Assembly (NCBI GenBank): GCA_002897955.1
Contig: BDTY01000099.1
Span: forward strand, 1 to 47,630
From: an archaeon BMS3Bbin15
GTDB lineage: Archaea > Hydrothermarchaeota > Hydrothermarchaeia > Hydrothermarchaeales > BMS3B
Length of the DNA stretch: 47,630 bases
Direction: 5' to 3'
Shown here: positions 4,211 through 36,515 of the stretch, in pieces
Position numbering within the stretch: the stretch's first letter is position 1
Layout: the number at the start of each line of letters is the position of its first letter
Notes under the pieces: generated by a model
What the model was told of the DNA's origin: nothing
Seen by the model: only the letters and a program-made list of their open reading frames with translations
Databases searched by the model: none
Translations under genes and position numbers: made by a program

Positions 4211-5379
4211 TGCACTTCGATATATTCATTGCAGGAGCAGGACCAGCAGGGCTGGCATGTGCAGGAGAACTTGCCTCAGAATTTGAGGTTGGTATTGCCG
4301 AGGAGCATCCTGAATTGGGGAATATCAGTTGCACAGGAGTTCTCGGCATAAAGTCTCTTGAAAGGCTGGGGATTGATTATAAAGACTCTGTTCTGAGTTA
4401 TATAAAATCTGCAAGGCTTCACTCAAACACCGAAAACCTTGAATTTTCATTTTCAAAACCTGTTGCCGTAGTTGTGGATAGAGCAGCTTTTGATAGAGGG
4501 CTTGGTGAAAATGCTCTTGATGAGGGTGCCGAGATTCTCACATCAACCAGAGTAGTAAAGGTTGAGAGGAAGAGAAAAGGATGGAAAATAAAACTTCTTA
4601 GAGAAGGTAAGATTGAAGAAGTAGAGGCGAAGGTTCTCATAGGGGCTGACGGTTTCAGGTCAGAGATTGCTCTTTCTCAGGGGCTCAGGGAGAGATGGAA
4701 ACCAGCTCATATACTATCCTGCTATCAGCTGGAGGTAAACTGCAGTGCTGAGCTGACTGAAGTTTATTTTACTCATCATGCCAGGAATTTCTTTGCCTGG
4801 AAGGTTCCTGCAGGCGAGAAATGCAGAGTTGGTCTGTGTTCAAGGGGTACAACTCTTTCACCAAAATCTGCCTTAAAAAAGCTTGTCAGTGAAAAGGGGA
4901 TAGAAGGTGAGATTCTTGCCGAGACTGGAGATGTTATACCCCTTGGAATTATTAATAAAACATACGCCGAAAGTTTGCTAATAGTGGGCGAAGCTGCCGG
5001 ATTCATAAAGCCGATTACAGGGGGTGGAGTAATCTTTGGCATAACATCCGGGAAGCTGGCAGCAGAAGTGTTAAAAGATGCCGGTAATTTCTCAGAGGGC
5101 TCTTTAAGCAGGTATGAAAAGTTGTGGAAGAAAAATATGGGCAGGGAGATAAACTTCGGGCTGCACTTTTCGAAGCTCTTCCACTCTCTTACCGGGGAGG
5201 AGCTTGATAAGATTTTCAGAACCTTGGATAAGGAGGCTGTTGATGAGATAAAGAAAAACTTCAGTTTTGACAGGCACAGTTTTCTTCTTAAAGTTGCTCT
5301 CAGGCATGGTTACAGAATTTTCAGGGCTCTGGGGACAAGGAGGAGTGCAGAACTTCTGGGAGAGCTCAGAAAGATTTGA
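4207..5379 (+). CDS. Geranylgeranyl reductase-family FAD-dependent oxidoreductase
   Basis: Dinucleotide-binding fold DIFIAGAGPAGLACAGELA, LIGADGFRS and GEAAGFIKPITGGG motifs; 390 aa. The start (TTG 4207 or ATG 4210) overlaps the usp stop. Confidence 0.8.
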   Translation: MMHFDIFIAGAGPAGLACAGELASEFEVGIAEEHPELGNISCTGVLGIKSLERLGIDYKDSVLSYIKSARLHSNTENLEFSFSKPVAVVVDRAAFDRGLGENALDEGAEILTSTRVVKVERKRKGWKIKLLREGKIEEVEAKVLIGADGFRSEIALSQGLRERWKPAHILSCYQLEVNCSAELTEVYFTHHARNFFAWKVPAGEKCRVGLCSRGTTLSPKSALKKLVSEKGIEGEILAETGDVIPLGIINKTYAESLLIVGEAAGFIKPITGGGVIFGITSGKLAAEVLKDAGNFSEGSLSRYEKLWKKNMGREINFGLHFSKLFHSLTGEELDKIFRTLDKEAVDEIKKNFSFDRHSFLLKVALRHGYRIFRALGTRRSAELLGELRKI

Positions 5380-5396: not shown

Positions 5397-5711
5397 TTAT
5401 ATCGGCGGAGCAATCGCAACCAGAACACGCATGCGTGTAGTTGCCTTAATGCCGTGAGGCTCACTTACCTTGCTTATCAGCATACTCCCGGGCCTGACTT
5501 CAACCTCGCTCTCCCCGCCAGTGAAATATCCTTCCCCGGCCAGCACAAGAATCATAACCTCGCTTTCAACATCATGACTGTGCACAGGCAGCTCCTGCCC
5601 TGCCTCAAAGTTGAAGTTTATTATCCGCCAGCCAGGTGAGTCGTGGAGTAGCCTGAGGTTATACCTATCTTCCCTGAACTGCGCATACTCGTCTAAATTT
5701 ATTATCTGCAT
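5397..5711 (-). CDS. Cupin-domain protein
   Basis: 104 aa with ELPVHSHDVESEVMILVLAGEG...PGSML...EPHGIKA, the two-motif His/Glu pattern of a cupin_2 domain. Confidence 0.7.
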   Translation of the reverse strand: MQIINLDEYAQFREDRYNLRLLHDSPGWRIINFNFEAGQELPVHSHDVESEVMILVLAGEGYFTGGESEVEVRPGSMLISKVSEPHGIKATTRMRVLVAIAPPI

Positions 5712-6045
5712 TTTCTATCACAATAGTAAATATGCATTCATAGAAGTTAATTCTATCTGCGAACATGTTTCCAGCATATTAATTCACCTGTGCCACTTAC
5801 CCAAACTAATTTGCTATGCATTCCATATCGCTAAAACAGATTAGATTACAGCAAATATATTGTAAGAGGAGAAATATAACACATCACAGCGAAGATATGC
5901 CCTATGGAAAATCTGAGAAAAACTTTCTCATACAAAGAAGTGAATCAACTCATAAAAGGTAAAAAATGAAATTTTTATTAAGAAATACAACACTTAATTC
6001 TAAAAAGAAAGAAAAACTTTTATTGTGCAAGAATGAAACTGAGTC

Positions 6046-25541: not shown

Positions 25542-25931
25542 ATATCAAATTGGCTATGCTGTATATCAGAATTTTCAAAGCATCTGGATAGCAGAAGATA
25601 TGATGTTGTGTTCACCTAAAACTTATATCATTTTTTCAGAAAGCAGGAAAGGAAGAAATTCAGAGAGACAGTCAGAAGAGTTCTGAAACCAGAGGGACTT
25701 CTTTTTCTGAGTACTCTATCCATAGAAGATATACAGGATTATACCACTCTCCCAGAAACAGCTTCGTCCAGAAAACCATACGTCCATCTATCAACCAGAG
25801 AAGAATTAAAGAAAGAGTTTAATTTTTTGAGGATTAAAGAGCTTTATGAGCATGAATATGACGAGCCTCACTCTTCTGGTGAGATTCACCACCATGTTTT
25901 ATTGATGCTTATGGGTGAAAACATTGGGTAA
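25542..25931 (+). pseudogene. Remnant of a class I SAM-dependent methyltransferase
   Basis: A single frame reads ...HLDSRRYDVVFT*NLYHFFRKQERKKFRETVRRVLKPEGLLFLSTLS...HHHVLLMLMGENIG*. There is an in-frame TAA at 25617-25619. No start codon is present and the N-terminal SAM-binding motif I is missing. Confidence 0.5.
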
Positions 25932-25982
25932 AGAGAGCTTCGCAGCAAAACACTTATAAAACAGTAAAAATATTCTCTGATT

Positions 25983-26552
25983 ATGCGTCAGGCAAAAGTA
26001 GAACGGACAACGAAAGAAACAGGTATAGAGGTAATTATCAATCTTGACAGCACTGGTAAAAGTACAATAAATTCATCCTTCCCCTTTTTGAATCATCTTC
26101 TTGACAGTTTTTCAAGACATGGCAGGTTTGATATTAAAATTAATGCCACAGGTGATAACGAACACCATATTGTCGAGGACATTGCAATTGTTCTTGGAAG
26201 GGCTTTCAATAAAGCCCTTGGTGAAAAAGTTGGAATAGAGCGCTTTGGCTCAGCAATTATACCCATGGATGATGTACTTGTGCTTGTGGCGATTGATATC
26301 GGTGGAAGGAGTTATATTGTAAATAATGTGAAGTTCAGATATAAGTCTGTAGAAGGTCTCAGTTCAGAGATGATTGACCACTTTATTGACACCCTTGCAA
26401 AAGAGATGAAGATAAACCTCCATGCAAAGCTTCTTGCAGGTAAAAATGAGCACCACAAGGCTGAAGCTTTATTCAAGGCTATGGGTGTTGCCATGAGGAA
26501 GGCCACAAGAGTTACAGGAGATGAACTTCCCAGCACAAAGGGCACACTATAA
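25983..26552 (+). CDS. hisB: Imidazoleglycerol-phosphate dehydratase
   Basis: 189 aa with ERTTKET, FLNHLLDSFSRHG, DNEHHIVEDIAIVLG and NEHHKAEALFKA motifs. Confidence 0.9.
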   Translation: MRQAKVERTTKETGIEVIINLDSTGKSTINSSFPFLNHLLDSFSRHGRFDIKINATGDNEHHIVEDIAIVLGRAFNKALGEKVGIERFGSAIIPMDDVLVLVAIDIGGRSYIVNNVKFRYKSVEGLSSEMIDHFIDTLAKEMKINLHAKLLAGKNEHHKAEALFKAMGVAMRKATRVTGDELPSTKGTL

Positions 26553-26561
26553 GGTGATATT

Positions 26562-27431
26562 ATGGTTGATTTAATAGTTAGCGGTAGTAGCTGTCAGGTT
26601 TTATCAAGAGAGATATCTGATGAACTCAATATTGAGCTTGCCATGGTTGAAAGTGGGCGCTTTCCTGATGGTGAACTCTATCTCAGAGTGGACAGCGATG
26701 TCAAGGGCAGGGACGTAGCTATTGTGCAGAGCACTTCAAAGCATCAGGATTCAAACCTGTTTGAACTCCTTTCTCTTCTTGAAACAATTAAAAGAGAGGG
26801 AGCCAGAGAGGTGACTGCAGTTGTGCCTTACTTTGGCTACGGCAGGCAGGACAGAAGCTTTGCATCAGGAGAAGCTATCACCTCCAGGGTAATAGCAGAA
26901 TTAATATCAAAGTATGCCGACAAATTTATCTCTCTAAACCTGCATAAAAGTACAATTCTTGACTTTTTTGATATTGAAGCTCTGGAAGGAGATGTTACTC
27001 CAGCTATAGCTGAATACTACTCTACCTTTGGTGTTAAAGATGCTGTGATTATATCGCCAGATAAGGGGGCATCTGGTCTTGCAAAGAATCTCGGAAAGCA
27101 TCTAAAATGTGAATATGACCATCTTGAGAAGAAAAGGATTGGCCCTGGAAGAGTTAAAATTATGCCCAGTAATATAAACCTTAAGGGTAAAAACGTCATT
27201 ATATATGACGATATAATCGATTCGGGCGGCAGTATAGCCGGAGCAATAAAGCTGCTCCATAAGCAGGGGGCAGAGAACATTCTTACAGCATGTATTCACC
27301 CTGTACTATCCAACAATGCTATAACAAGGCTATTCACCTCAGGTGTAGTTGATCTGGTTGGTACAAACACAATTCCGAGCCAGATAAGCTTTATAACTGT
27401 CTCAGAAATAATTTCAAAGATGCTGAAATGA
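26562..27431 (+). CDS. prs: Ribose-phosphate pyrophosphokinase
   Basis: 289 aa with RFPDGELYLR, VVPYFGYGRQDR and a PRPP-binding loop VIIYDDIIDSGGS. Confidence 0.9.
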   Translation: MVDLIVSGSSCQVLSREISDELNIELAMVESGRFPDGELYLRVDSDVKGRDVAIVQSTSKHQDSNLFELLSLLETIKREGAREVTAVVPYFGYGRQDRSFASGEAITSRVIAELISKYADKFISLNLHKSTILDFFDIEALEGDVTPAIAEYYSTFGVKDAVIISPDKGASGLAKNLGKHLKCEYDHLEKKRIGPGRVKIMPSNINLKGKNVIIYDDIIDSGGSIAGAIKLLHKQGAENILTACIHPVLSNNAITRLFTSGVVDLVGTNTIPSQISFITVSEIISKMLK

Positions 27432-27578
27432 ACCCTTTTGAAGCTCTTGAGGTTGGCGTGGGGGCTCAGGCAGATTTGCCTCAAATCTGGGAATTAGATA
27501 TGGCCTTAGTCCTTCTATTAATCTTTTGAAGATGGCCAAGTTGAGGGTATACGGGTAGTAAGAGGCGAAGGCTACACT

Positions 27579-28058
27579 CTATAGCCATTTCATACTTCTT
27601 TTATACTTAGTGGGACTTTCTCCTTCTTCAAGTTTCCTGAAGATATACAGATGCTCGTGAGCAATTAGCAGGAAGTCATATTTACATAGCCAGCTCTCTC
27701 GTGTTGTCTTCATCTTCCACTGGAGCTTTATAACTTCCTCACGCAGAATAAAGCCAGCATCGAGGAAGGCAAGAAGCACTCTTGTAGCTATGGGCACATA
27801 GTGCTTATATTTGCGGGTGTTTCCAATCAGCACGGCGCAGTGCTTCCCAGGCTTGAGCACGCGGTAGCACTCCTCAGCAACCCTGGCCATCTCTTTTATA
27901 TATTCTTCAAGCTTGAACGAGGATAAATCTCCAGGTATGCGCTTTGCAGAGTATGGAATTATGCCAGCGTAGGGTAGATGTGTGGCAATCAGGTCTATGC
28001 TTTCATCTGTAATCAGGTTCAGGTTGCACGCATCTCCGCCATTTTTAGATGTAATAAA
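27579..28058 (-). pseudogene. 5'-truncated DNA methyltransferase fragment (motif IV onward)
   Basis: The open frame extends upstream of the annotated 103-aa ORF: ...GGDACNLNLITDESIDLIATHLPYAGIIPYSAKRIPGDLSSFKLEEYIKEMARVAEECYRVLKPGKHCAVLIGNTR... The catalytic (D/N/S/T)PPY-type motif is degenerated to THLPY. No start codon exists upstream of the internal Met at 27890, and the SAM-binding motif I region is absent. The frame is closed by a TAA at 28059-28061. Confidence 0.6.
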
Positions 28059-28098
28059 TTATACTGATGATAATTGGTTGCGATTTTGATTTTTATGA

Positions 28099-28425
28099 CA
28101 TGATAGGGAAAAATTAAGAGAAGAATTAGTTCAAACTGGAGATTTAGATGAATACAAACAATTTATTAAATAATCTTTACAAGAAATGAGCAGAGTTCTA
28201 CGAAAAGAAAAATATTGTATTGTTGAGGTAGGTGATGTTCGACATAAGTCAAAGAAACTTTATCTTGATAGGGTTATTGTTGAGTTAGTTGGAGATATGG
28301 ATTTAAAAGTTGAAAAAATAATGATTAATTACATGAATGTTCCTAAAATATCAAGAGCATTTAGAAGAAAAGAAGAATAGCAAGGTACTAAAACTAATAG
28401 GTGTATTATCATGAAGAAAATTTAA
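28099..28425 (+). pseudogene. Decayed C-terminal fragment of a second DNA methyltransferase
   Basis: A single frame reads HDREKLREELVQTGDLDEYKQFIK*SLQEMSRVLRKEKYCIVEVGDVRHK...ISRAFRRKEE*QGTKTNRCIIMKKI*. It has two in-frame stops (TAA 28171-28173 and TAG after 28377). The E..RVL(K/R) post-motif-IV pattern is present. There is no N-terminal half. Confidence 0.5.
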
Positions 28426-29231
28426 TTTTTAAAGTCTGATAATCTTACTTCTTGAAGGGTATTTTTTAGTCGTTGTTCAATAATTTTGTTGTAAACAGGA
28501 GAAAGTTCAAAACCAAGATATTTTCTTCTGTTTTTTTTAGCAGAAACTGCAACAGTTCCAGAACCCATAAATGGGTCAAAAACGACCTCATTTTTGTTTG
28601 AACTTGCTTTAACAAAAATATCAATTAACTTTACAGGTAATTGGCAAACATGCTCGGTTTTATCTTTGTTTACATTCTTCACAATATTCATCTCAATAAT
28701 GTCTTCACCATTATAATCAAACTTAAAAACGTCGTAAGGTGTTTTTCCTTTTGATCCTTTTTCAATTAATTTTTTAATTCGTTTATCAGTTGGATTTCTA
28801 TAAGGTTCTGCAATTGCATCTTTATTAAATGTGCAATCACTTTGCTTTTTTGCTTTAATATAAAATAAAATACTATGTTGTGTTCTTGTGAAATTATACT
28901 TAGAATGACCTGTATTTGTTGGATAATGCCATGTCATCCAACGCTTAAATAGAAGATGTTCATCCAAGAAAGGCATCAGATAAGCATTATTTTCTGGATA
29001 GTTAAAAAGATAAAGGCTACCTCCTAACTTCAATATTCTTATACATTCTGAAAGCCATTTCTTACACCATTCTATATATTCTTCTTTTGATTTTTTATCT
29101 TTATATGGGCTGTTATATTGTTTACCAATATTGAAAGGAGGATCTGTAATAATTAAGTCTACCGAGTTGTCAGGAATTCTTTTTTTCATTCCCTCTACAC
29201 AATCCTCATTGTAAATTTTGTTGGTTTCCAT
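28422..29231 (-). CDS. Beta-class N6-adenine/N4-cytosine DNA methyltransferase (intact)
   Basis: Motif IV DLIITDPPFNIG lies near the N-terminus and motif I VFDPFMGSGTVAVSA near the C-terminus; RILKLGGSLYLF is also present. 269 aa. The region is very AT-rich. Confidence 0.85.
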   Translation of the reverse strand: METNKIYNEDCVEGMKKRIPDNSVDLIITDPPFNIGKQYNSPYKDKKSKEEYIEWCKKWLSECIRILKLGGSLYLFNYPENNAYLMPFLDEHLLFKRWMTWHYPTNTGHSKYNFTRTQHSILFYIKAKKQSDCTFNKDAIAEPYRNPTDKRIKKLIEKGSKGKTPYDVFKFDYNGEDIIEMNIVKNVNKDKTEHVCQLPVKLIDIFVKASSNKNEVVFDPFMGSGTVAVSAKKNRRKYLGFELSPVYNKIIEQRLKNTLQEVRLSDFKN

Positions 29232-29232
29232 T

Positions 29233-29493
29233 TTACATCAGTTGAAGAACTTTTTTACCATCTTCGGTAATCTGATATAATCGTCCTCTTTTATCTTCTT
29301 CATTAAGACATCTTACAAGTTTATTGTCTTTAAATTCTTTGAGGAAAATCGAAACGTGATTAACGACGATTCCAGTTTCTTTTGATATTTCAGTGGGAGT
29401 TAAAACTTTTCCTCTGTCAAGTAATTTTAAGATATTTACTCTATTTTCACTTGTTTTGAGCAATTGAAGACCTTTTATCATAAGCTTATCCAT
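29233..29493 (-). CDS. Small winged-helix (ArsR/MarR-like) regulator, candidate controller of the MTase module
   Basis: 86 aa. NRVNILKLLDRGKVLTPTEISKETGIVVNHVSIFLKEFKDNKLVRCL...GRLYQITEDGKKVL fits helix-turn-helix plus wing. Its stop lies 1 nt before the MTase start. Confidence 0.65.
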   Translation of the reverse strand: MDKLMIKGLQLLKTSENRVNILKLLDRGKVLTPTEISKETGIVVNHVSIFLKEFKDNKLVRCLNEEDKRGRLYQITEDGKKVLQLM

Positions 29494-29567
29494 GTAGTAT
29501 ATTAAACACTACTTCTTTTTACTGTTATTTACTACTTACACACAACTTATATATAAATCATTATGTG

Positions 29568-29587
29568 ATAAACTGTATATAAACTGT
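29568..29587. promoter_or_regulatory. Tandem 9-bp direct repeat (ATAAACTGT x2, 11-bp period), candidate operator upstream of the 220-aa gene
   Basis: ATAAACTGT occurs at 29568-29576 and again at 29579-29587. This is immediately upstream of a TATA-like TATAATAAA (29597-29605), which lies ~24 nt before ATG 29625. It sits in the divergent intergenic region shared with the wHTH-MTase operon. Confidence 0.35.
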
Positions 29588-29624
29588 GAAAAGCAGTATA
29601 ATAAATGATGATTATCTTTAATCA

Positions 29625-30287
29625 ATGCCTGAAGAGAACAAGATTGATACTGTTATTGAATTAAAAATTAAATCTCCAAAAAATATTTATCATGAGTTAG
29701 CTGTTGCATTAGAGCCATACAAAGAAAGGCCAACTTGTTCTGTGGAATTTATTGTTGAAGGTACAAAAGACCGACCAACAATTGGAATTAGATACCCAGG
29801 CCGTAAGGCGCTTAACAGAGTAAGAGCCGGAAGGATTAAGAAGGTAAGAGCAAACTCTGCAGAATGGGCAAATCTTTTTGATTTTTTAGTAATTCCATAT
29901 GTTAGTGGAAAAGAACTGACGCAAGGAGAATTTACATTTGAAAAGATTCTACGGGATTTTCAGGACAACAAAAGAAAAAGTGAAGAATTCTGGGAATTAA
30001 TAGAGGAACTCTATAAACATAACACCATTAGTAAAGAACCACCAAAATTGCCCGGTATTGATTCAAAATTATATTTGCTTGTTTTGAAATGGATATGGAT
30101 TCAGGAAGATTTTAATTACAAGTTGGGCTGGCAGGATGTTAATTCTCATATTCGTTATGTTTTGGAAACAAGAACAGGAACATCTACTTCAAAAGGCGCT
30201 GGAAGAGGAAAATTTTACGCAGCTCTAATTCTGTTAAAGCATAATTTCAATTTTGACGTAGTGAAAAAGATCATACCTCTCTATTAG
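29625..30287 (+). CDS. Hypothetical 220-aa protein, candidate restriction endonuclease or effector of the MTase module
   Basis: A long clean ORF in an AT-rich island, divergent from the wHTH-MTase operon. I recognise no motif. Notable segments are CSVEFIVEGTKDRPTIGIRY, LVLKWIWIQEDFNYKLGW and TSKGAGRGKFYAAL. Confidence 0.6.
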   Translation: MPEENKIDTVIELKIKSPKNIYHELAVALEPYKERPTCSVEFIVEGTKDRPTIGIRYPGRKALNRVRAGRIKKVRANSAEWANLFDFLVIPYVSGKELTQGEFTFEKILRDFQDNKRKSEEFWELIEELYKHNTISKEPPKLPGIDSKLYLLVLKWIWIQEDFNYKLGWQDVNSHIRYVLETRTGTSTSKGAGRGKFYAALILLKHNFNFDVVKKIIPLY

Positions 30288-30370
30288 AATGACTTACAAA
30301 TTTTCACACTCATTATTAACTCTTTTAAAAGAGTAATGTGGATTTTGTAAGTGGTTGAGAATTGTATGAT

Positions 30371-30571
30371 TTAATAATCTAAAATGCTATATAGTTCTAT
30401 ATTGAAAGTAGTTAGGGATTTAGTATTCTTATCAGGCCCTATCAAGAAATCAATAAACTCTCTAACATCAAAAATAATGATTTCTAATTCAGTGAAATTT
30501 AATATAAAATCTCTAATAAATGAGTCATAGTCAGTCTTTTTTTTACAAAAGAGTTTCTTTAATATTTTCAA
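30371..30571 (-). CDS. Hypothetical small protein (66 aa), doubtful
   Basis: AT-rich ORF starting at TTG. It is in the same frame as the 30581-30763 ORF, separated by one TAG and three codons. No motif. Confidence 0.25.
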   Translation of the reverse strand: MKILKKLFCKKKTDYDSFIRDFILNFTELEIIIFDVREFIDFLIGPDKNTKSLTTFNIELYSILDY

Positions 30572-30580
30572 GGAAATTAA

Positions 30581-30763
30581 CTAAGTAAACTGAATTTGGG
30601 TTCGGGGCTGTTTCTGTATTATCTGCCAAACATGTCGCTTAGTTTTAAGTAGTGGTTTGCATATCACTTCATGAAGCTCAGTCACAGCGACATCGAGAAT
30701 ATTTGTTCTTAGAGTTGTCAGGTATGTGTCTGGCACTAAGTCTGTAGCTGGGCAATATGACAT
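30581..30763 (-). CDS. Hypothetical 60-aa ORF, possibly the 5' stump of a gene truncated by the AT-rich island
   Basis: Composition resembles the host rather than the island. The ORF ends exactly where the AT-rich sequence begins. It shares the strand of the methyltransferase fragment at 27579-28058. Confidence 0.3.
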   Translation of the reverse strand: MSYCPATDLVPDTYLTTLRTNILDVAVTELHEVICKPLLKTKRHVWQIIQKQPRTQIQFT

Positions 30764-30853
30764 GATAGCCTCTTTAAAATCGAACGTGTTTATATATACT
30801 ATAGACGAAGAATATAGGATAAAATATCAAGAAAATTTCAGGAGGATTAAAAT

Positions 30854-31114
30854 ATGAAAGGAAGAATACTGGCCTTCAGGCAAAGCAGACGGGTGAGCAA
30901 TCCACGCTATGCGGTTGTGAAACCTTCAATTGAAGGAAACTACATTGGCAGGAAGGTAGTGTACACCACGCTGACAGGAAAAAAGATAGCCGGCAAGGTC
31001 AGAAAACACCACGGCAATGCACTGCTGGTATGCTTCTCCCGCGGGCTTCCTGGGCTGGCACTGGGGAGTGATGTGGAGTTCATACCGTCATCAAAAGCCG
31101 AAGAGAAATCTTAG
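30854..31114 (+). CDS. rpl35ae: Ribosomal protein eL33 (L35Ae)
   Basis: 86 aa. GRILAFRQSRR...AVVKPSIEG...IGRKVVYTT.TGKKIAGKVRKHHGNALLVCFSRGLPG.ALG matches the L35Ae pattern. An AGGAGG lies 8 nt upstream. Confidence 0.8.
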   Translation: MKGRILAFRQSRRVSNPRYAVVKPSIEGNYIGRKVVYTTLTGKKIAGKVRKHHGNALLVCFSRGLPGLALGSDVEFIPSSKAEEKS

Positions 31115-31170
31115 GCTGACAGAAATTTTGAAAAGCCAGGAAATATGGCGCATTTTCCTCACACCAGAAC

Positions 31171-31956
31171 CTACTCCTCAGAAAGAGATGCAAAAGCTCT
31201 TAGAAACTCCTCCTCCATAAAGTGAAACTCTGCAGGGATTATAAGAGTGTGAGGTGGTCTGCCAAGGTCTTCTTCCAGCAATTTTCTGATACTGCCCGCT
31301 TTTAGTTTGAACTCAGGCGCTCCCGCCCTTGAAACAACCACAGCAATAGTTTCAGTATTAATAACCCCCTCCTTTTTTCTATCTTCAAGCTTCAGCAAAA
31401 TTTCAAGAGCTTCCTTTGCATGCATAAGATAGGTTCCGCTCTTCTCAACCTTAATATCAAGGAAGAGCATTGTATGAAGCCCCATCTTCATATTTGCCTT
31501 AACTGTAGTGTAAGGTGTTTCTGAAAAAAACCTTTCTTCAGGTCTTGCAATACTTGCACTCCTGCCAAATTTATAATTCTGCAGTCCTGCAAGAGAGGGT
31601 GCAGCGGAGTAAATCGAGGCGTTGTTCACAACTCTAACTTCAATTTCTGACTCTCTGGCATCAAGAAGGAGGTGTACGTGAGTTGTGGATATAAGAGCGT
31701 CACCAGCCACCAGCAGTGAAACCTTGCTCTTCTTTGCCCTCTCCAGTATTACTTTTTCTCCCTCCTCTTCAATATCGCTTCTTGAAAGCAGCCTAACCTT
31801 TCTGCCTATAATTTTCTCCAGCCTATCCAGATTCAAACCAGGCATAACTGATGTATAGAACTCAGCAAAAATATAGTCGCTGCTTCTCGCCTCTTCGAGG
31901 CCCATTAAAGTTATATCCTTCTCACTGTAAAGTCCCAGGCCAATAAGCACAAGCAT
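31171..31956 (-). CDS. dphB: Diphthine synthase
   Basis: MLVLIGLGLYSEKDITLMGLEEARSSDYIFAEFYTS, LVAGDALISTTH; tetrapyrrole-methylase fold; 261 aa. Confidence 0.85.
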   Translation of the reverse strand: MLVLIGLGLYSEKDITLMGLEEARSSDYIFAEFYTSVMPGLNLDRLEKIIGRKVRLLSRSDIEEEGEKVILERAKKSKVSLLVAGDALISTTHVHLLLDARESEIEVRVVNNASIYSAAPSLAGLQNYKFGRSASIARPEERFFSETPYTTVKANMKMGLHTMLFLDIKVEKSGTYLMHAKEALEILLKLEDRKKEGVINTETIAVVVSRAGAPEFKLKAGSIRKLLEEDLGRPPHTLIIPAEFHFMEEEFLRAFASLSEE

Positions 31957-31988
31957 AATATTAATAGTTTTAATGCAATATAAAACTC

Positions 31989-32999
31989 ATGGCTCTTGCT
32001 GTTAAGATTGGAAAAGAGAAGGCAGAGGAAACAAGAAAGAAGCTTATTGAATCTAACCTCTTTGATTCAGAATATAAAATTCTGATTAATGGAAACTACG
32101 TACTTCTCCCAGTAATTGGAAAGCCTGAGGGCTTTGAGGTTGTTGATATTCCCCTTAAGAAGAGAAAAAAAAGAAAGAGCTTCCGGGACAGACTTGGTGA
32201 AATTCTAACAGAAAATGAGATTTCACAGGTTAGAACTTCATTTGACCTTATTGGTGATATTGCAGTAGTTGAAATTCCACCTGACCTGGAAAAAAAAGAA
32301 AAGGAAATAGCCAGGGCACTTTTAGACTCCGTAAAGGCTGTGAAGGCTGTTTTTAAGAAAGAAGGTTCGGTTTATGGCAGTGAGAGGATCAGAAAATTAA
32401 AATACCTTGCAGGAGAGCACAGGAGTGAGACGGTACATACTGAAAACGGAATAAAACTCAAGCTGGATATAAAAGAGGTTTACTTTTCACCGAGGTTGAG
32501 CTATGAAAGACTCAGAGTACTCAGCAGGGTGAATGACGGTGAGATTATAGTCGACCTTTTTGCAGGAATAGGCCCTTTTGCATTACTCATTGCGAAAAAC
32601 AGAAAAGTAAAGGTTTATGCAATGGACATAAATGCTAGGGCCATAGAGTATCTTAAAGAGAATGTTAAACTGAATAGACTCGAGGGAGAGGTTATTGTAA
32701 TTCATGGTGATGCTATGAAGGTTGCTCCACAGAGAGTAGCTGACAGGGTTATTATGAACCTTCCGAAGAAAAGTCACGAATTTTTACCCCTTGCTTTTGA
32801 CGTATTGAAAGAAAAGGGAGGGGTGATTCACTTCTACACAATTGCTCCTGAGGAGGAGCTTTTCGCACAAGGTGAGAGAATCATTAAGAGAACAGCAGAG
32901 GAAAAAGGAGTTATTGCTAGAATAGAGAATAGCAAGGTTGTTAGAAGCTACTCACCGGGAAATTACCATGTGGTATTTGATATCAGAGTTGTTTCATAA
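31989..32999 (+). CDS. trm5: tRNA (guanine37-N1)-methyltransferase Trm5 / Met-10+ family
   Basis: FDLIGDIAVVEIP, VYFSPRLSYER, VDLFAGIGPFALLIA and DRVIMNLP motifs; 336 aa. Confidence 0.75.
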   Translation: MALAVKIGKEKAEETRKKLIESNLFDSEYKILINGNYVLLPVIGKPEGFEVVDIPLKKRKKRKSFRDRLGEILTENEISQVRTSFDLIGDIAVVEIPPDLEKKEKEIARALLDSVKAVKAVFKKEGSVYGSERIRKLKYLAGEHRSETVHTENGIKLKLDIKEVYFSPRLSYERLRVLSRVNDGEIIVDLFAGIGPFALLIAKNRKVKVYAMDINARAIEYLKENVKLNRLEGEVIVIHGDAMKVAPQRVADRVIMNLPKKSHEFLPLAFDVLKEKGGVIHFYTIAPEEELFAQGERIIKRTAEEKGVIARIENSKVVRSYSPGNYHVVFDIRVVS

Positions 33000-33106
33000 G
33001 CTATATGCAGCGTTTGTAACCTGCTCGAATTTCTGACACTCTAAATCCAATCTTCTACCCATATCCCGGCACTAATTTTAAATATCATTGTATAGTTCTT
33101 AATCTA

Positions 33107-33814
33107 ATGAAACTTCTTGTAAGTCCCTACACTGTTGAAGAAGCAGGAGAAGTTCTTAAAGGCAGGGCTGATATTATAGACGTAAAGAACCCGAAGGAAG
33201 GCAGTCTTGGCGCCAACTTTCCCTGGGTTATCAGAGACATAGTCTCCATTGCAGAAGGCAAAGCAGAGACCAGCGCCACTATGGGAGACCTTAAATTCAA
33301 ACCAGGGCAGGCATCTCAGGCAGCATTCGGTCTCTCTCTGCTTGGTATTGACTACATAAAGGCAGGGCTTGCTTTCACTGGCATGGAAAGGGCTGAAGAA
33401 ATGGCCAGAAGTATAGTGAAGGCTGTTGAAGGGAGAACAAAGGTTATAATTGCAGGCTATGCTGATTATGCACTTATTAAAACACTTTCTCCTCTCGAAC
33501 TTCCCGCTATCGCAGAGAAGGCAGGTGCTCATGGCGTTATGATTGACACTTTTACCAAGAAAGGGAGAGGACTATTTGACTTTATGAGTGAAGAGGAACT
33601 CTCAGTTTTTATTGAGGAGGCACACAGCAAAAATCTTGAGGTTGCTCTTGCCGGGTCTCTGAAGGAGGAGCAGATTTTAAGAGTTAAAAAGCTTGGAGCA
33701 GATATAGCCGGTGTCAGGGGAGCAGTATGCTCTGGAGGGGATAGGGTTAACGGTAAAATTTCTATAGAAAGAGTTAAGGAGCTGAAAAAGATATGCAGTG
33801 CCAAAAGCCTGTAA
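33107..33814 (+). CDS. mfnB: (5-formylfuran-3-yl)methyl phosphate synthase (methanofuran biosynthesis, MfnB)
   Basis: MKLLVSPYTVEEA......ADIIDVKNPKEGSLGANFPWVI, GVMIDT..K and LAGSL motifs of the DUF556/MfnB TIM-barrel family; 235 aa. Confidence 0.8.
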   Translation: MKLLVSPYTVEEAGEVLKGRADIIDVKNPKEGSLGANFPWVIRDIVSIAEGKAETSATMGDLKFKPGQASQAAFGLSLLGIDYIKAGLAFTGMERAEEMARSIVKAVEGRTKVIIAGYADYALIKTLSPLELPAIAEKAGAHGVMIDTFTKKGRGLFDFMSEEELSVFIEEAHSKNLEVALAGSLKEEQILRVKKLGADIAGVRGAVCSGGDRVNGKISIERVKELKKICSAKSL

Positions 33815-33885
33815 ACTACAGAATAAAATAACTTTGCAGATATAAAATTGAAAAAATAGAAATAAAAGAGTTAGAAGTAGGCTTT

Positions 33886-34074
33886 TTAGCAGGAATCGTG
33901 AGAAATTGCACTCTGAGGGCAACCCTCAATACATGCACAACACTCTATGCAATCGTCCATATTGACTGCTTCACTCTTATTGTCATCGTTGAGTTCATAT
34001 ACACCAGCGGGACATACGTCCACACAGCTTCCGCATCCGATACATGCATCTAAATCAATCTTTATAGAAACCAT
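33886..34074 (-). CDS. 2x[4Fe-4S] ferredoxin
   Basis: 62 aa with CIGCGSCVDVCP and CIECCACIEGCP. Confidence 0.8.
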   Translation of the reverse strand: MVSIKIDLDACIGCGSCVDVCPAGVYELNDDNKSEAVNMDDCIECCACIEGCPQSAISHDSC

Positions 34075-34174
34075 ATACTTGGACCTCCTTTTGCAATAAT
34101 CGATTATAAGAATAACAAAAGAAAATAATTATTGAAGAGTTAGATTTAATAAGATGTGGGAGAATTAAAAATTA

Positions 34175-34807
34175 ATGACTCTCAAGCTCGACCTTCACAT
34201 TCACTCAGGATACTCCAAGGACTCGCGAATGGAAGTGAAAAGAATAATAGAGATTGCAAAGAGCAGAGGTTTGAGCGGTATAGCAATAACAGACCACAAC
34301 TCTGCTGAAGGTGGATTTCATGGCAGGAAAATTGCCGGAGATGATTTTACAGTTATACCGGGTGAAGAGGTTCTTACCAGCAGAGGCGAAGTTCTGTGTC
34401 TATTCCTCAATGATGAGGTCAAAACAAGAGAATTCTACGAGGTTGTGGATGAGGTGCATTCCCAGGACGGGCTATGTATAGCCCCCCACCCCTTTGACTT
34501 ATTCAGAATCAACAGATTAAAGGGTATCGAGAAACTCTACAAAAATCTTGATGGGATTGAGGTTTTCAATGCCAGATGTGCCTTTGAGAGCTGCAACATA
34601 AAAGCACTGGAATTTGCTCTGAAAAAGAAAATGCTTATGACAGCAGGAAGTGATGCCCACAACTACGGCGAGATAGGTTCGGCCGGAGTTGCTGTTAAGG
34701 ATATAGAGGATATAAGGAAGGGTAAAACTGAGATTTTCGGGAGCGCCTCAGGATTTTTCCAGTTAATAAAAACAAAAATTTATAAGAGTTTTGGTATAGA
34801 GGTTTAA
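34175..34807 (+). CDS. PHP-domain metal-dependent phosphoesterase
   Basis: LDLHIHSGYSKDS, IAITDHNS, APHPFD and AGSDAHN motifs; 210 aa. Confidence 0.7.
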   Translation: MTLKLDLHIHSGYSKDSRMEVKRIIEIAKSRGLSGIAITDHNSAEGGFHGRKIAGDDFTVIPGEEVLTSRGEVLCLFLNDEVKTREFYEVVDEVHSQDGLCIAPHPFDLFRINRLKGIEKLYKNLDGIEVFNARCAFESCNIKALEFALKKKMLMTAGSDAHNYGEIGSAGVAVKDIEDIRKGKTEIFGSASGFFQLIKTKIYKSFGIEV

Positions 34808-34809
34808 TC

Positions 34810-35487
34810 ATGTCAGAGGAGGAAAAAAAACTTGCTGGAATCGAAGCTGCCAGAGAGGTTGAGGAAGGAGGCTATATTGGTCTGGGAACTGGTTCGACTG
34901 TAAGGTATGCTGTAGAGGAGCTGGGCCGAAGGGTCAGAGAGAACGGCCTTGAGATTAAGTGTATACCAACTTCTGCTGATACAAGGATTCTTGCAATTAA
35001 AAATAAAATTCCTCTCACAACCTTCGAGGAGGTTCATGAGCTTGATATAGCTATAGATGGTGCGGACCAGATTTCGAGTGACTACGCATTGATAAAGGGC
35101 GGCGGCGCAGCTCTCTTCAGGGAGAAGGTTGTTGCTTCAAATTCAAAGAGATTTATTGTTGTTGTTGACAAATCAAAACTATCAGAGTCTCTCGATATTG
35201 CCGTTCCGGTGGAAGTTCTGCCATTCGCCTGGGCTGTCGTTTCTGAAAGGCTTGAAACTCTGGAATGTAAAAAATCTAAATTAAGGTGTGCAACAGGGAA
35301 ATCAGGGCCTCTGCTCACAGATAATGGTAACTATATTCTTGATGCCAGCTTTGGAAGAATTGAATATCCACAGAAGCTTGAGGAGGAGATTAATGATATT
35401 GTCGGAGTTGTGGAAAATGGAATATTCTGTGGCATGGCTTCAAAGATTATAGTGGGTAGAGACGGCAGGATTGAGGTGCTGCAGTGA
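34810..35487 (+). CDS. rpiA: Ribose-5-phosphate isomerase A
   Basis: GLGTGSTV, IDGADQI, LIKGGGAALFREK and VVDKSK motifs; 225 aa. Confidence 0.9.
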   Translation: MSEEEKKLAGIEAAREVEEGGYIGLGTGSTVRYAVEELGRRVRENGLEIKCIPTSADTRILAIKNKIPLTTFEEVHELDIAIDGADQISSDYALIKGGGAALFREKVVASNSKRFIVVVDKSKLSESLDIAVPVEVLPFAWAVVSERLETLECKKSKLRCATGKSGPLLTDNGNYILDASFGRIEYPQKLEEEINDIVGVVENGIFCGMASKIIVGRDGRIEVLQ

Positions 35488-36515
35488 TTAACAGGGTTCT
35501 TCAGGCTCTTCAGGAACCAGAGAGTTATGATGAGGATGTAAAGGAGATAAAACTAATCCAGACACATATCTCATTTGTGTTCCTCACAGGAGACTATGTA
35601 TATAAAATTAAAAAGCCTGTGAATTTTGGATTTCTTGACTTTACATCTCTTGAAAAAAGGAAGTTTTACTGCGAGGAGGAGATGAGGGTTAATAAAGCTA
35701 TTGCCGGAGAGATATATCTCGGGGTTATGCCTATTGTCGAGACTTCCGAAGGCAGGATAAAGGTTAATGACACGGGCAGGGTTGTTGAGTATGCTGTCAA
35801 AATGATTCAGCTTCCTCAGTCTGCAATAATGAGCAATCTTCTGAAGGAAAATAACGTATATAAAAAAGATGTTGTTGAGATAGCAAAACTGGTGGCTGAC
35901 TTTCACTCAACAGCTAACAGAGGCGAGGAGATTAGTAAATATGGCAGTTATGAACAGATTATGGCAAACTGGACTCAGAATTTTGAGCAGACGGAGAATC
36001 TTACTGGAGAGTATCTGGATAAAGAAAAATATCTGGAGCTTAAGGACAGAGTTATAAATTTCATGGATAGCAACAGAGAACTTTTTGAAAGAAGGGTCAG
36101 AGAGGGTAAAATAAGGGAATGTCACGGTGACCTTCACAGCGGTAATATCTTTATTGTGAGAAGGCCAGGAAAGCTCTATAAACCTGGAATTTACATCTTT
36201 GATGCCATAGAGTTTTTCAAAGGCTTTAGCTGCAGTGATATTCTTGCAGATATCGCCTTTTTATCAATGGACCTTGAATTTAATGGCAGAGATTATCTTG
36301 ATAAATCCTTTGTTGATGCATATTTTAAGTTTTCTGATGAGGAAAAGCTGGAGAACCTTCTGGATTTCTATAAGTGTTACAGGGCCTTTGTGAGAATGAA
36401 AGTCACAGGCTTTATGCTCTTTGACGAGAATGTCGACGAAGAGGAGAAGATAAAAATAAGAGGGCTGGTTAAGAAGTATTTCGAGCTGGCAGGGAAGTAT
36501 GCTACTCTGCTATGA
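35484..36515 (+). CDS. Protein-kinase-like / aminoglycoside-phosphotransferase-fold protein (APH half of COG2187-type proteins)
   Basis: IQTHISFVFLTGDYVYKIKKPVNFGFLDFTSLEKRKFYCEEE at the N-terminus. Catalytic loop is ECHGDLHSGNIF, followed by IFDAIEF. Confidence 0.65.
   Translation: MINRVLQALQEPESYDEDVKEIKLIQTHISFVFLTGDYVYKIKKPVNFGFLDFTSLEKRKFYCEEEMRVNKAIAGEIYLGVMPIVETSEGRIKVNDTGRVVEYAVKMIQLPQSAIMSNLLKENNVYKKDVVEIAKLVADFHSTANRGEEISKYGSYEQIMANWTQNFEQTENLTGEYLDKEKYLELKDRVINFMDSNRELFERRVREGKIRECHGDLHSGNIFIVRRPGKLYKPGIYIFDAIEFFKGFSCSDILADIAFLSMDLEFNGRDYLDKSFVDAYFKFSDEEKLENLLDFYKCYRAFVRMKVTGFMLFDENVDEEEKIKIRGLVKKYFELAGKYATLL

Follow-up and report, generated by a model that had tools for sequence, protein, structure and literature searches.

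Background

A C-box of two operators, followed by an operon in which a controller gene precedes the restriction gene, is the defining layout of controlled Type II restriction-modification (R-M) systems (i.e., those of the C.PvuII and C.AhdI type). To our knowledge, restriction enzymes fall into five structural classes, PD-(D/E)XK, HNH, GIY-YIG, phospholipase D (PLD) and half-pipe; the last of these to be found, the PabI half-pipe, brought an entirely different chemistry. PabI was found to be a restriction component through its R-M gene context, and it combined a new fold with archaeal occurrence and a lack of classical nuclease motifs; it is paired with an amino-methyltransferase, and decay of the restriction gene is frequent (PMC10273834). 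The gene described here, R, encodes a protein of 220 amino acids (aa) at 29625–30287 on the forward strand (ATG at 29625, stop codon included at 30287) of contig BDTY01000099.1, a stretch of 47,630 nucleotides (nt) from the archaeon BMS3Bbin15 (GCA_002897955.1) that was analysed as a whole and is referred to as the window. R was interpreted as being, very probably, the restriction component of a Type II R-M cassette that moves horizontally and is regulated by a controller, in which it would cleave DNA; confidence in any specific chemistry was much lower. The type of cassette is known already, and functionally it is comparable to a C-controlled one of Type IIP; what is new is that the R component of this Type II system comes from an undescribed family.

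The cassette resembles the C-controlled Type II systems (PvuII, BamHI, AhdI, BclI and Esp1396I type) in having one amino-methyltransferase, a candidate endonuclease of ~210 aa and a small DNA-binding controller, as well as in its mobility and decay. It is unlike them in that R has no detectable relation, in sequence or structure, to PvuII, BamHI, BglII or other solved restriction enzymes; in that the controllers of the window and of other archaeal loci are winged-helix proteins, rather than helix-turn-helix (HTH) proteins of the Xre type; and in that most methyltransferases from the candidate phyla radiation (CPR) bear a LexA-like repressor/peptidase module at the N-terminus. With the R.PabI family, R shares its identification through R-M context, the lack of a classical nuclease motif, an amino-methyltransferase partner, archaeal members and decay. 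However, neither sequence nor Foldseek comparison matched the two, and the C-terminal half of R is helix-rich. The PD-(D/E)XK superfamily is comparable in its size, its likely homodimeric Type IIP role and its conserved Asp, Glu and Lys residues, and the order of elements in the N-terminal alpha/beta part is vaguely similar, but in R the motif is missing from the expected positions and two confident models gave no structural match.

Association with DNA methyltransferases

A search of 5.8 billion proteins returned 357 homologues of R at E <= 1e-3. This is more than chance would produce, and shows that the open reading frame (ORF) picked out by an earlier, sequence-only reading of the window is a real gene. 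Almost all homologues were 207–217 aa in length and mostly 62–73% identical over the full length, and every name given to them by their sources was 'hypothetical protein'. In an exhaustive scan with HMMER, 1.84 billion representatives yielded 41 clusters at 50% identity; with so few clusters, the family is therefore compact. It was present in 27 of 185,579 GTDB species genomes, mostly CPR/Patescibacteria and DPANN archaea, with single occurrences in Planctomycetales, Acidobacteriota, Bathyarchaeia, Methanosarcinales and one metagenome-assembled genome (MAG) of Methanobacteriota. No copies were detected in annotated plasmids and annotated phages (by tblastn) or in IMG/VR viral contigs (by scan).

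A DNA methyltransferase consistently stood next to the gene and was inherited along with it. There was sufficient flanking sequence to judge 25 of the 27 species loci (in the other two, R was cut by the start of the contig), and a PF01555 methyltransferase was found beside R in all 25, as well as in 9 of 9 distinct metagenomic contexts examined. Co-occurrence with methyltransferases had been named by the sequence-only reading as a test of its proposal that R belongs to an R-M system, and the association proved to be universal among these loci. The relative order of the genes varied, being convergent, divergent or tandem.

In the window, the partner (M) is a beta-class amino DNA methyltransferase of 269 aa, encoded on the reverse strand at 28422–29231. 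It matched PF01555 (N6_N4_Mtase) with E = 3.4e-48 and the PADLOC model MTase_II with 1.3e-57, and its closest solved structure was M.MboIIA (1.1e-33). Assignment to the beta class was made because motif IV (DPPF, residue ~32) stands towards the N-terminus, ahead of a C-terminal motif I (DPFMGSG, residue ~221). A winged helix-turn-helix (wHTH) gene of 86 aa, a candidate C-like controller, lies at 29233–29493 on the same strand; the best Pfam matches of its product, HVO_A0261_N (1.7e-5) and HTH_45 (3.6e-5), were both under the curated cut-offs. The wHTH stop codon and the start of M are separated by 1 bp, and so the two genes were considered to form one operon, from which R is divergent. The winged-helix matches, the PF01555 score and the motif order thereby bear out the sequence-only reading, which had placed a wHTH gene and a beta-class methyltransferase on the strand opposite R.

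Methyltransferases of at least four kinds were observed beside R. The first comprises beta-class enzymes of 255–320 aa, in which motif IV reads DPPF (the window, and loci L011 and L039) or DPDY (L015, L027 and L038). The second, seen in most CPR loci, is a fusion of ~500 aa that unites a LexA DNA-binding domain, an S24 peptidase and a beta-class methyltransferase, with DPDY as motif IV. Enzymes of 611–624 aa with motif I ahead of SPPY form the third kind (L013, L014, L029 and L044), while the fourth is an SPPF enzyme of 406 aa (L016). Across these different systems R was 43–70% identical to the window protein, and the identities of R and M to their window counterparts were uncoupled; R and M were 64% and 40% identical respectively in L007, and 43% and 65% in L039. 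A central block resembling a target recognition domain was conserved between the window-type and LexA-fused CPR methyltransferases, which suggests, at the level of sequence, that these may have the same target.

The LexA-fused methyltransferases were observed at L007 (5620–7176, reverse strand), L018–L025, L028, L030, L031, L034 and L040–L043. In these enzymes a complete LexA DNA-binding domain and S24 self-cleaving peptidase stand at the N-terminus, and the DPDY motif IV is unusual. The fusion could represent an SOS- or damage-responsive switch within the modification enzyme; a literature search found no description of it.

Controllers and operators

In seven CPR loci, an Xre-type HTH gene of 50–73 aa was found on the same strand as R and 4–5 bp upstream of it, and its product matched the solved controllers C.BclI (4.2e-6) and C.AhdI (2.8e-5). 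A conserved palindrome (ATATTCCAA/TTGGAATAT or a variant) was present ahead of the Xre gene, with a second site, TGGAATATA/AGGATATA, ~10 nt beyond it. R is therefore linked to a C-box and a C protein in these seven loci, and the order observed (C-box, Xre-type C gene, R, and M convergent) is that of C-controlled Type II systems. From the layout of the window, the sequence-only reading had taken R to fill the place of the endonuclease in a controlled Type II system; the CPR operons, the universal methyltransferase linkage and the decay described below all agree with this.

In archaeal loci, a wHTH gene homologous to that of the window occurs in place of the Xre gene, and always abuts the 5' end of R. 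The two genes are divergent in the window, L013, L029 and L044, and in tandem in L016, and the homologues in L013, L016, L029 and L044 occupy this position whatever the lineage of the methyltransferase. Between the wHTH gene and R, the palindrome TTAGTTAC-N8-GTAACTAA was common to L013 (~4935–4965), L029 (~4935–4960) and L044 (~2715–2745); a TTACTACTTTATTTAAA box was also common to these loci. By function, the wHTH protein would seem to be the archaeal counterpart of the Xre-type C proteins of bacteria. We know of no description of such proteins as a class of R-M controller.

The window has a divergent promoter/control region of 131 bp (29494–29624) between the wHTH-M operon and R. Within it, two copies of a 9-nt direct repeat, ATAAACTGT, were identified at 29568–29576 and 29579–29587 (11 nt apart), flanking a TATA-like TATATAAA (29576–29583); the region also contains two copies of ACTACTT and three imperfect inverted repeats. 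A TTTACTACTT box at 29528–29537 resembles a box beside the wHTH gene in L013, L029 and L044. Since this box was the only element shared with the control DNA of those loci, and the repeats were peculiar to the window, the operator of the window is a putative one, and the clear operators lie in other loci. Short repeats in such AT-rich DNA are, by themselves, weak evidence of an operator. Hence, where the sequence-only reading had R and the wHTH-M operon sharing a repeat-rich control region of 131 bp, its exact length and its repeats were confirmed, while a role as operator was indicated only weakly.

One effector gene appears under three interchangeable controls: a C protein of the Xre type, a winged-helix protein in archaea and, at the methyltransferase itself, a fused LexA-like module. 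These three modes amount to a natural experiment in the taming of toxic genes across the domains of life.

These arrangements also bear on the idea that R is not an effector and has some non-toxic auxiliary function beside the methyltransferase, for instance in DNA-binding regulation, in specificity or in reading methyl marks. Dedicated regulators (the Xre-type C protein, the wHTH protein and the LexA fusion) are already present and are positioned to control R, and coming second in an operon with a C-box and a C protein is what defines an R gene by position. Beta-class Type II methyltransferases work alone, and the lack of relation between the lineages of its partners speaks against a specific pairing of R with another protein. 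It is true that no catalytic motif was identified in R, that its basic loop and hairpin-helix GAGR-K motif could simply bind DNA, and that decay of the gene would also fit dispensability. Yet there were no copies without a methyltransferase in the assessable loci, and this strict lack indicates that R cannot be kept without methylation. An accessory function was therefore thought highly improbable, and R was still best regarded as the restriction component.

Decay and horizontal transfer

Seven of the 27 species loci had a broken R, through frameshift or truncation. Frameshifts were observed in L025, L029, L034 and L035, the gene was multiply disrupted in L038, and it was truncated at the 5' end in L032 and L036; M was usually intact where R was broken. 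This pattern of decay is typical of a toxic gene.

The cassette occupies a low-GC island between the prs and L35Ae genes (~28000–30750, boundaries being approximate), which was evident in the composition profile. Over ~2.7 kb, the GC content of the island was 28–35%, compared with ~38–45% in the flanks, and its neighbours are archaeal housekeeping genes (hisB, prs, L35Ae, dph5, trm5-like and mfnB-like). Horizontal transfer of the cassette was concluded both because a low-GC island is found among housekeeping genes, and because the family spans DPANN archaea, CPR, Planctomycetales, Acidobacteriota and methanogen-related archaea. Taken together, the linkage to methyltransferases, the variety of partners, the controllers and the decay are hallmarks of a Type II restriction gene, and R behaves as one that is selfish and toxic.

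A sister genome retained the locus in a degraded state. L032 (QIGD01000032.1, 170–8403) is syntenic with 25581–35541 of the window, with 93–96% nucleotide identity in the flanks; of the island, only remnants corresponding to 28410–28638, 29802–29849 and 29974–30336 were present. M is reduced to its 3' end and R to pieces of its 3' part; the 5' half of R has been deleted, as have the wHTH gene with the promoter region and most of M. The window and L032 form a natural before/after pair for the loss of an R-M system. One of the surviving pieces (29802–29849) surrounds a four-residue insertion in the basic loop of R (VRAG, residues 66–69; 29820–29831), which occurred in the window protein only and was missing from 30 aligned homologues.

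Conservation and predicted structure of R

An alignment was made of 31 sequences, with identities down to 32%. The invariant residues were Y57, P58, G59, D86, F87, D111, F112, K116, F122, W123, Y130, G144, W156, E161, N164, Y165 and G193, and the near-invariant residues E45, Q160, D162, R194 and K196; no His or Cys belonged to either group. Three peptide segments, quoted by the sequence-only reading as conserved in appearance, were present and belong to the parts of the family that are conserved best. Signature peptides of the family returned nothing from the literature.

Window R and up to 31 family members were compared with Pfam, NCBIfam, PADLOC and PHROGs. R had no match at E <= 1 in Pfam or PADLOC, and only noise was obtained from NCBIfam and PHROGs; neither single-sequence nor profile searches found anything among PDB sequences. 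As a positive control for PADLOC, the EcoRV sequence scored 9.5e-176 against REase_II; eight members of the R family produced no score against the PADLOC restriction enzyme models. The only weak signal to recur was a resemblance between residues ~150–200 of R and the WWDYG segment of the oligosaccharyltransferase STT3/PglB (PDB 3aag, E = 0.11; PF21436, seen in 2 of 31 members with a best E of 0.0039). It was judged to be spurious, since the segment is short and rich in aromatics and the membrane enzyme that contains it is unrelated.

AlphaFold2 produced confident models for window R (predicted local distance difference test (pLDDT) 93.7, predicted template modelling score (pTM) 0.90) and for P0143, the most divergent full-length member (pLDDT 90.1, pTM 0.88). 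The predicted N-terminal part of R is alpha/beta, with a strand at 9–12, a helix at 18–32, a hairpin at 40–46/51–56, a basic loop of 30 residues and a strand at 88–93, while the predicted C-terminal half consists largely of helices (105–116, 120–132, 147–165, 194–205 and 210–216). When both models were compared by Foldseek with 350,542 PDB chains, the best E values were 0.66 and 1.3 with TM <= 0.19 (normalised by query length), and no nuclease rose above noise. The sole restriction enzyme among the matches listed was 3ndh (E = 4.6, root-mean-square deviation 13.6 Å). A Foldseek search of BFVD with one model gave a marginal match (E = 0.038, TM = 0.34) to an uncharacterised protein of the Streptomyces phage BillNye, which was dropped, there being nothing useful on it in the literature.

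In the features compared, R fitted none of the five known restriction enzyme classes. The PD-(D/E)XK core is alpha-beta-beta-beta-alpha-beta, with D where strand two begins and (D/E)xK in strand three; R had no conserved acid at the former position and no such motif at the latter (invariant D86 precedes strand 88–93, with no Lys after it), nor was there a meaningful Foldseek match or a Pfam or PADLOC restriction enzyme model. An HNH or His-Me finger, which is a beta-beta-alpha-metal motif that has a conserved His along with Asn/His and often Cys4 zinc sites, was rejected for want of conserved His or Cys and of any Pfam match, and a PLD-type enzyme (BfiI-like, HxK(x)4D) on the same grounds of His and Pfam. 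In GIY-YIG nucleases, a helix with a conserved Arg comes straight after the GIY and YIG strands, and Glu and Asn come next, all within ~100 residues. In R, the hairpin at 40–56 does end in the invariant YPG, but a 30-residue loop follows instead of a helix and E161/N164 lie 100 residues away; Pfam and Foldseek gave no support. The PabI half-pipe was rejected since RE_R_Pab1 was not matched in Pfam (E <= 1) and no PabI structure was among the Foldseek PDB matches of either model. The sequence-only reading had called the protein unrecognisable, and had seen no PD-(D/E)xK, HNH, GIY-YIG or PLD signature in it by eye. Both statements hold, given the misplaced conserved residues and the failure to match any family or fold, and the profile and structure searches by which that reading was to be judged gave no confident match to a characterised restriction enzyme family or to a housekeeping family.

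It could be argued that R is nonetheless an ordinary endonuclease, whose core, of PD-(D/E)XK or another known type, has diverged so far that Foldseek and the profile models missed it; this would make it a new sequence family with an old fold. Against this stand the missing PD-(D/E)XK residues on the second and third strands and the poor Foldseek results, including that for 3ndh, obtained with two confident models, and such a core was thought rather unlikely.

A second alternative retains R as the restriction component but gives it a non-canonical chemistry, either a PabI-like glycosylase/apurinic-apyrimidinic lyase or some other metal-independent damage to DNA. The invariant residues are rich in aromatics (Y57, F87, F112, W123, Y130, W156 and Y165), which with D111 and K116 would suit base flipping or stacking and lyase activity; furthermore, no metal-nuclease motif or fold was found, and a restriction enzyme of new fold with glycosylase chemistry has its precedent (PMC10273834). 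Conversely, R lacks any similarity to PabI, whether to RE_R_Pab1 or to the half-pipe in Foldseek, and several of the invariant acids would serve metal binding just as well. By far most restriction enzymes are phosphodiesterases. This alternative, although a live one, was considered unlikely.

It is a fair possibility, if less likely than not, that the R family stands outside the five known classes of restriction enzyme, being new in both structure and catalysis, with an active site that is partly helical (D111/K116 and E161/D162) and possibly with a non-canonical, DNA-damaging chemistry. The family circulates mainly among the ultra-small DPANN and CPR organisms and has reached a methanogen-related archaeon here. 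A sixth class, if real, would add to the known ways in which DNA is read in a methylation-sensitive manner and broken, and could offer a new enzyme specificity for biotechnology. The invisibility of the family to Pfam, NCBIfam and PADLOC also means that its R-M systems in CPR and DPANN genomes are now scored as orphan methyltransferases, which is a gap in the annotation of defence systems.

Proposed mechanism and recognition sequence

With R as the restriction component, M would mark a short target in the host DNA, most probably by N6-adenine methylation if the DPPF motif follows convention; by the same convention, m4C placed at that site by the SPPY partners found elsewhere would also be protective. 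R would recognise the same sequence in its unmethylated state and break the DNA, probably as a homodimer on a palindrome, the favoured chemistry being metal-dependent phosphodiester hydrolysis. Judged by conservation, D86, D111, K116 and E161 (with D162 and E45) are candidates for the catalytic site, partly on helices, and the invariant acidic and basic residues in general are compatible with a hydrolytic active site. DNA contacts might be made by residues 59–80 of the basic loop and by the GAGR-K motif. The wHTH protein would bind the 131-bp divergent promoter region and so delay or limit expression of R relative to M.

Several considerations weigh against this interpretation. A nuclease motif or fold could not be recognised in R, either in the 31-sequence alignment or by Foldseek with two models, and its catalytic activity is deduced purely from context. 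The candidate catalytic residues were chosen by conservation and not by structural superposition. Some of the frameshifts in MAGs may be assembly errors, and the family, which was compared with Pfam, NCBIfam, PADLOC, PHROGs and the PDB, may already hold an enzyme that has been characterised but not classified. Lastly, the target has no firmer assignment than GATC, a weak candidate.

GATC was by far the most depleted palindrome in the window, where 11 sites were observed and 127 expected (z = -10). Over the pooled host loci, 218 were observed against 692 expected, and depletion affected 27 of 29 loci. GATC systems, with both methylation and avoidance of the sequence, are common in archaea (PMC10609329). 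For that reason, and because the depletion was uncontrolled and 3 of the 11 window sites lie inside the island itself (28753, 29141 and 30269), GATC was kept only as a weak lead. Two other palindromes were depleted in the window, CTAG (11 observed, 55 expected) and GATATC, the most depleted of the 6-mers (14 observed, 27 expected). The targets of the nearest solved methyltransferases, M.MboIIA (GAAGA) and M.BceJIV (GTWWAC), were uninformative, only the catalytic core being shared with M. Identity with MaeIII, which was raised by its CamA-like methyltransferase and a mild depletion of GTNAC, was ruled out since MaeIII is ~35 kDa.

Other features of the loci

The left edge of the island coincides with the remnant of another PF01555/UPF0020-like methyltransferase (27579–28070, reverse strand), which has the GC content of the host (~45%). 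It keeps a degenerate motif IV region (...LIATHLPYAG...) and a C-terminal part, and its 5' truncation falls exactly at the drop in GC. Within the low-GC DNA, a 64-aa ORF (28186–28380, forward strand) is similar to the same segment of the remnant. This suggests that the cassette was inserted into an older methyltransferase gene or recombined with it, and that the site is a hotspot of R-M turnover. No tRNA genes were found within the window.

Two small ORFs were observed downstream of R in several loci of Aenigmatarchaeota (L004, L005, L006, L014 and L017), for example at 5672–5962 and 5988–6242 in L004. As called, these are 96 and 84 aa long, within open frames of ~104 aa, and one has a faint zinc-ribbon signal.

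An L35Ae gene is situated directly 3' of R both in the window (30854–31114) and in the unrelated archaeal contig L044 (3522–3782). At the DNA level, R alone matched between the two (70.6%), the flanks being otherwise dissimilar, and the shared adjacency could reflect either coincidence or a preferred insertion site.
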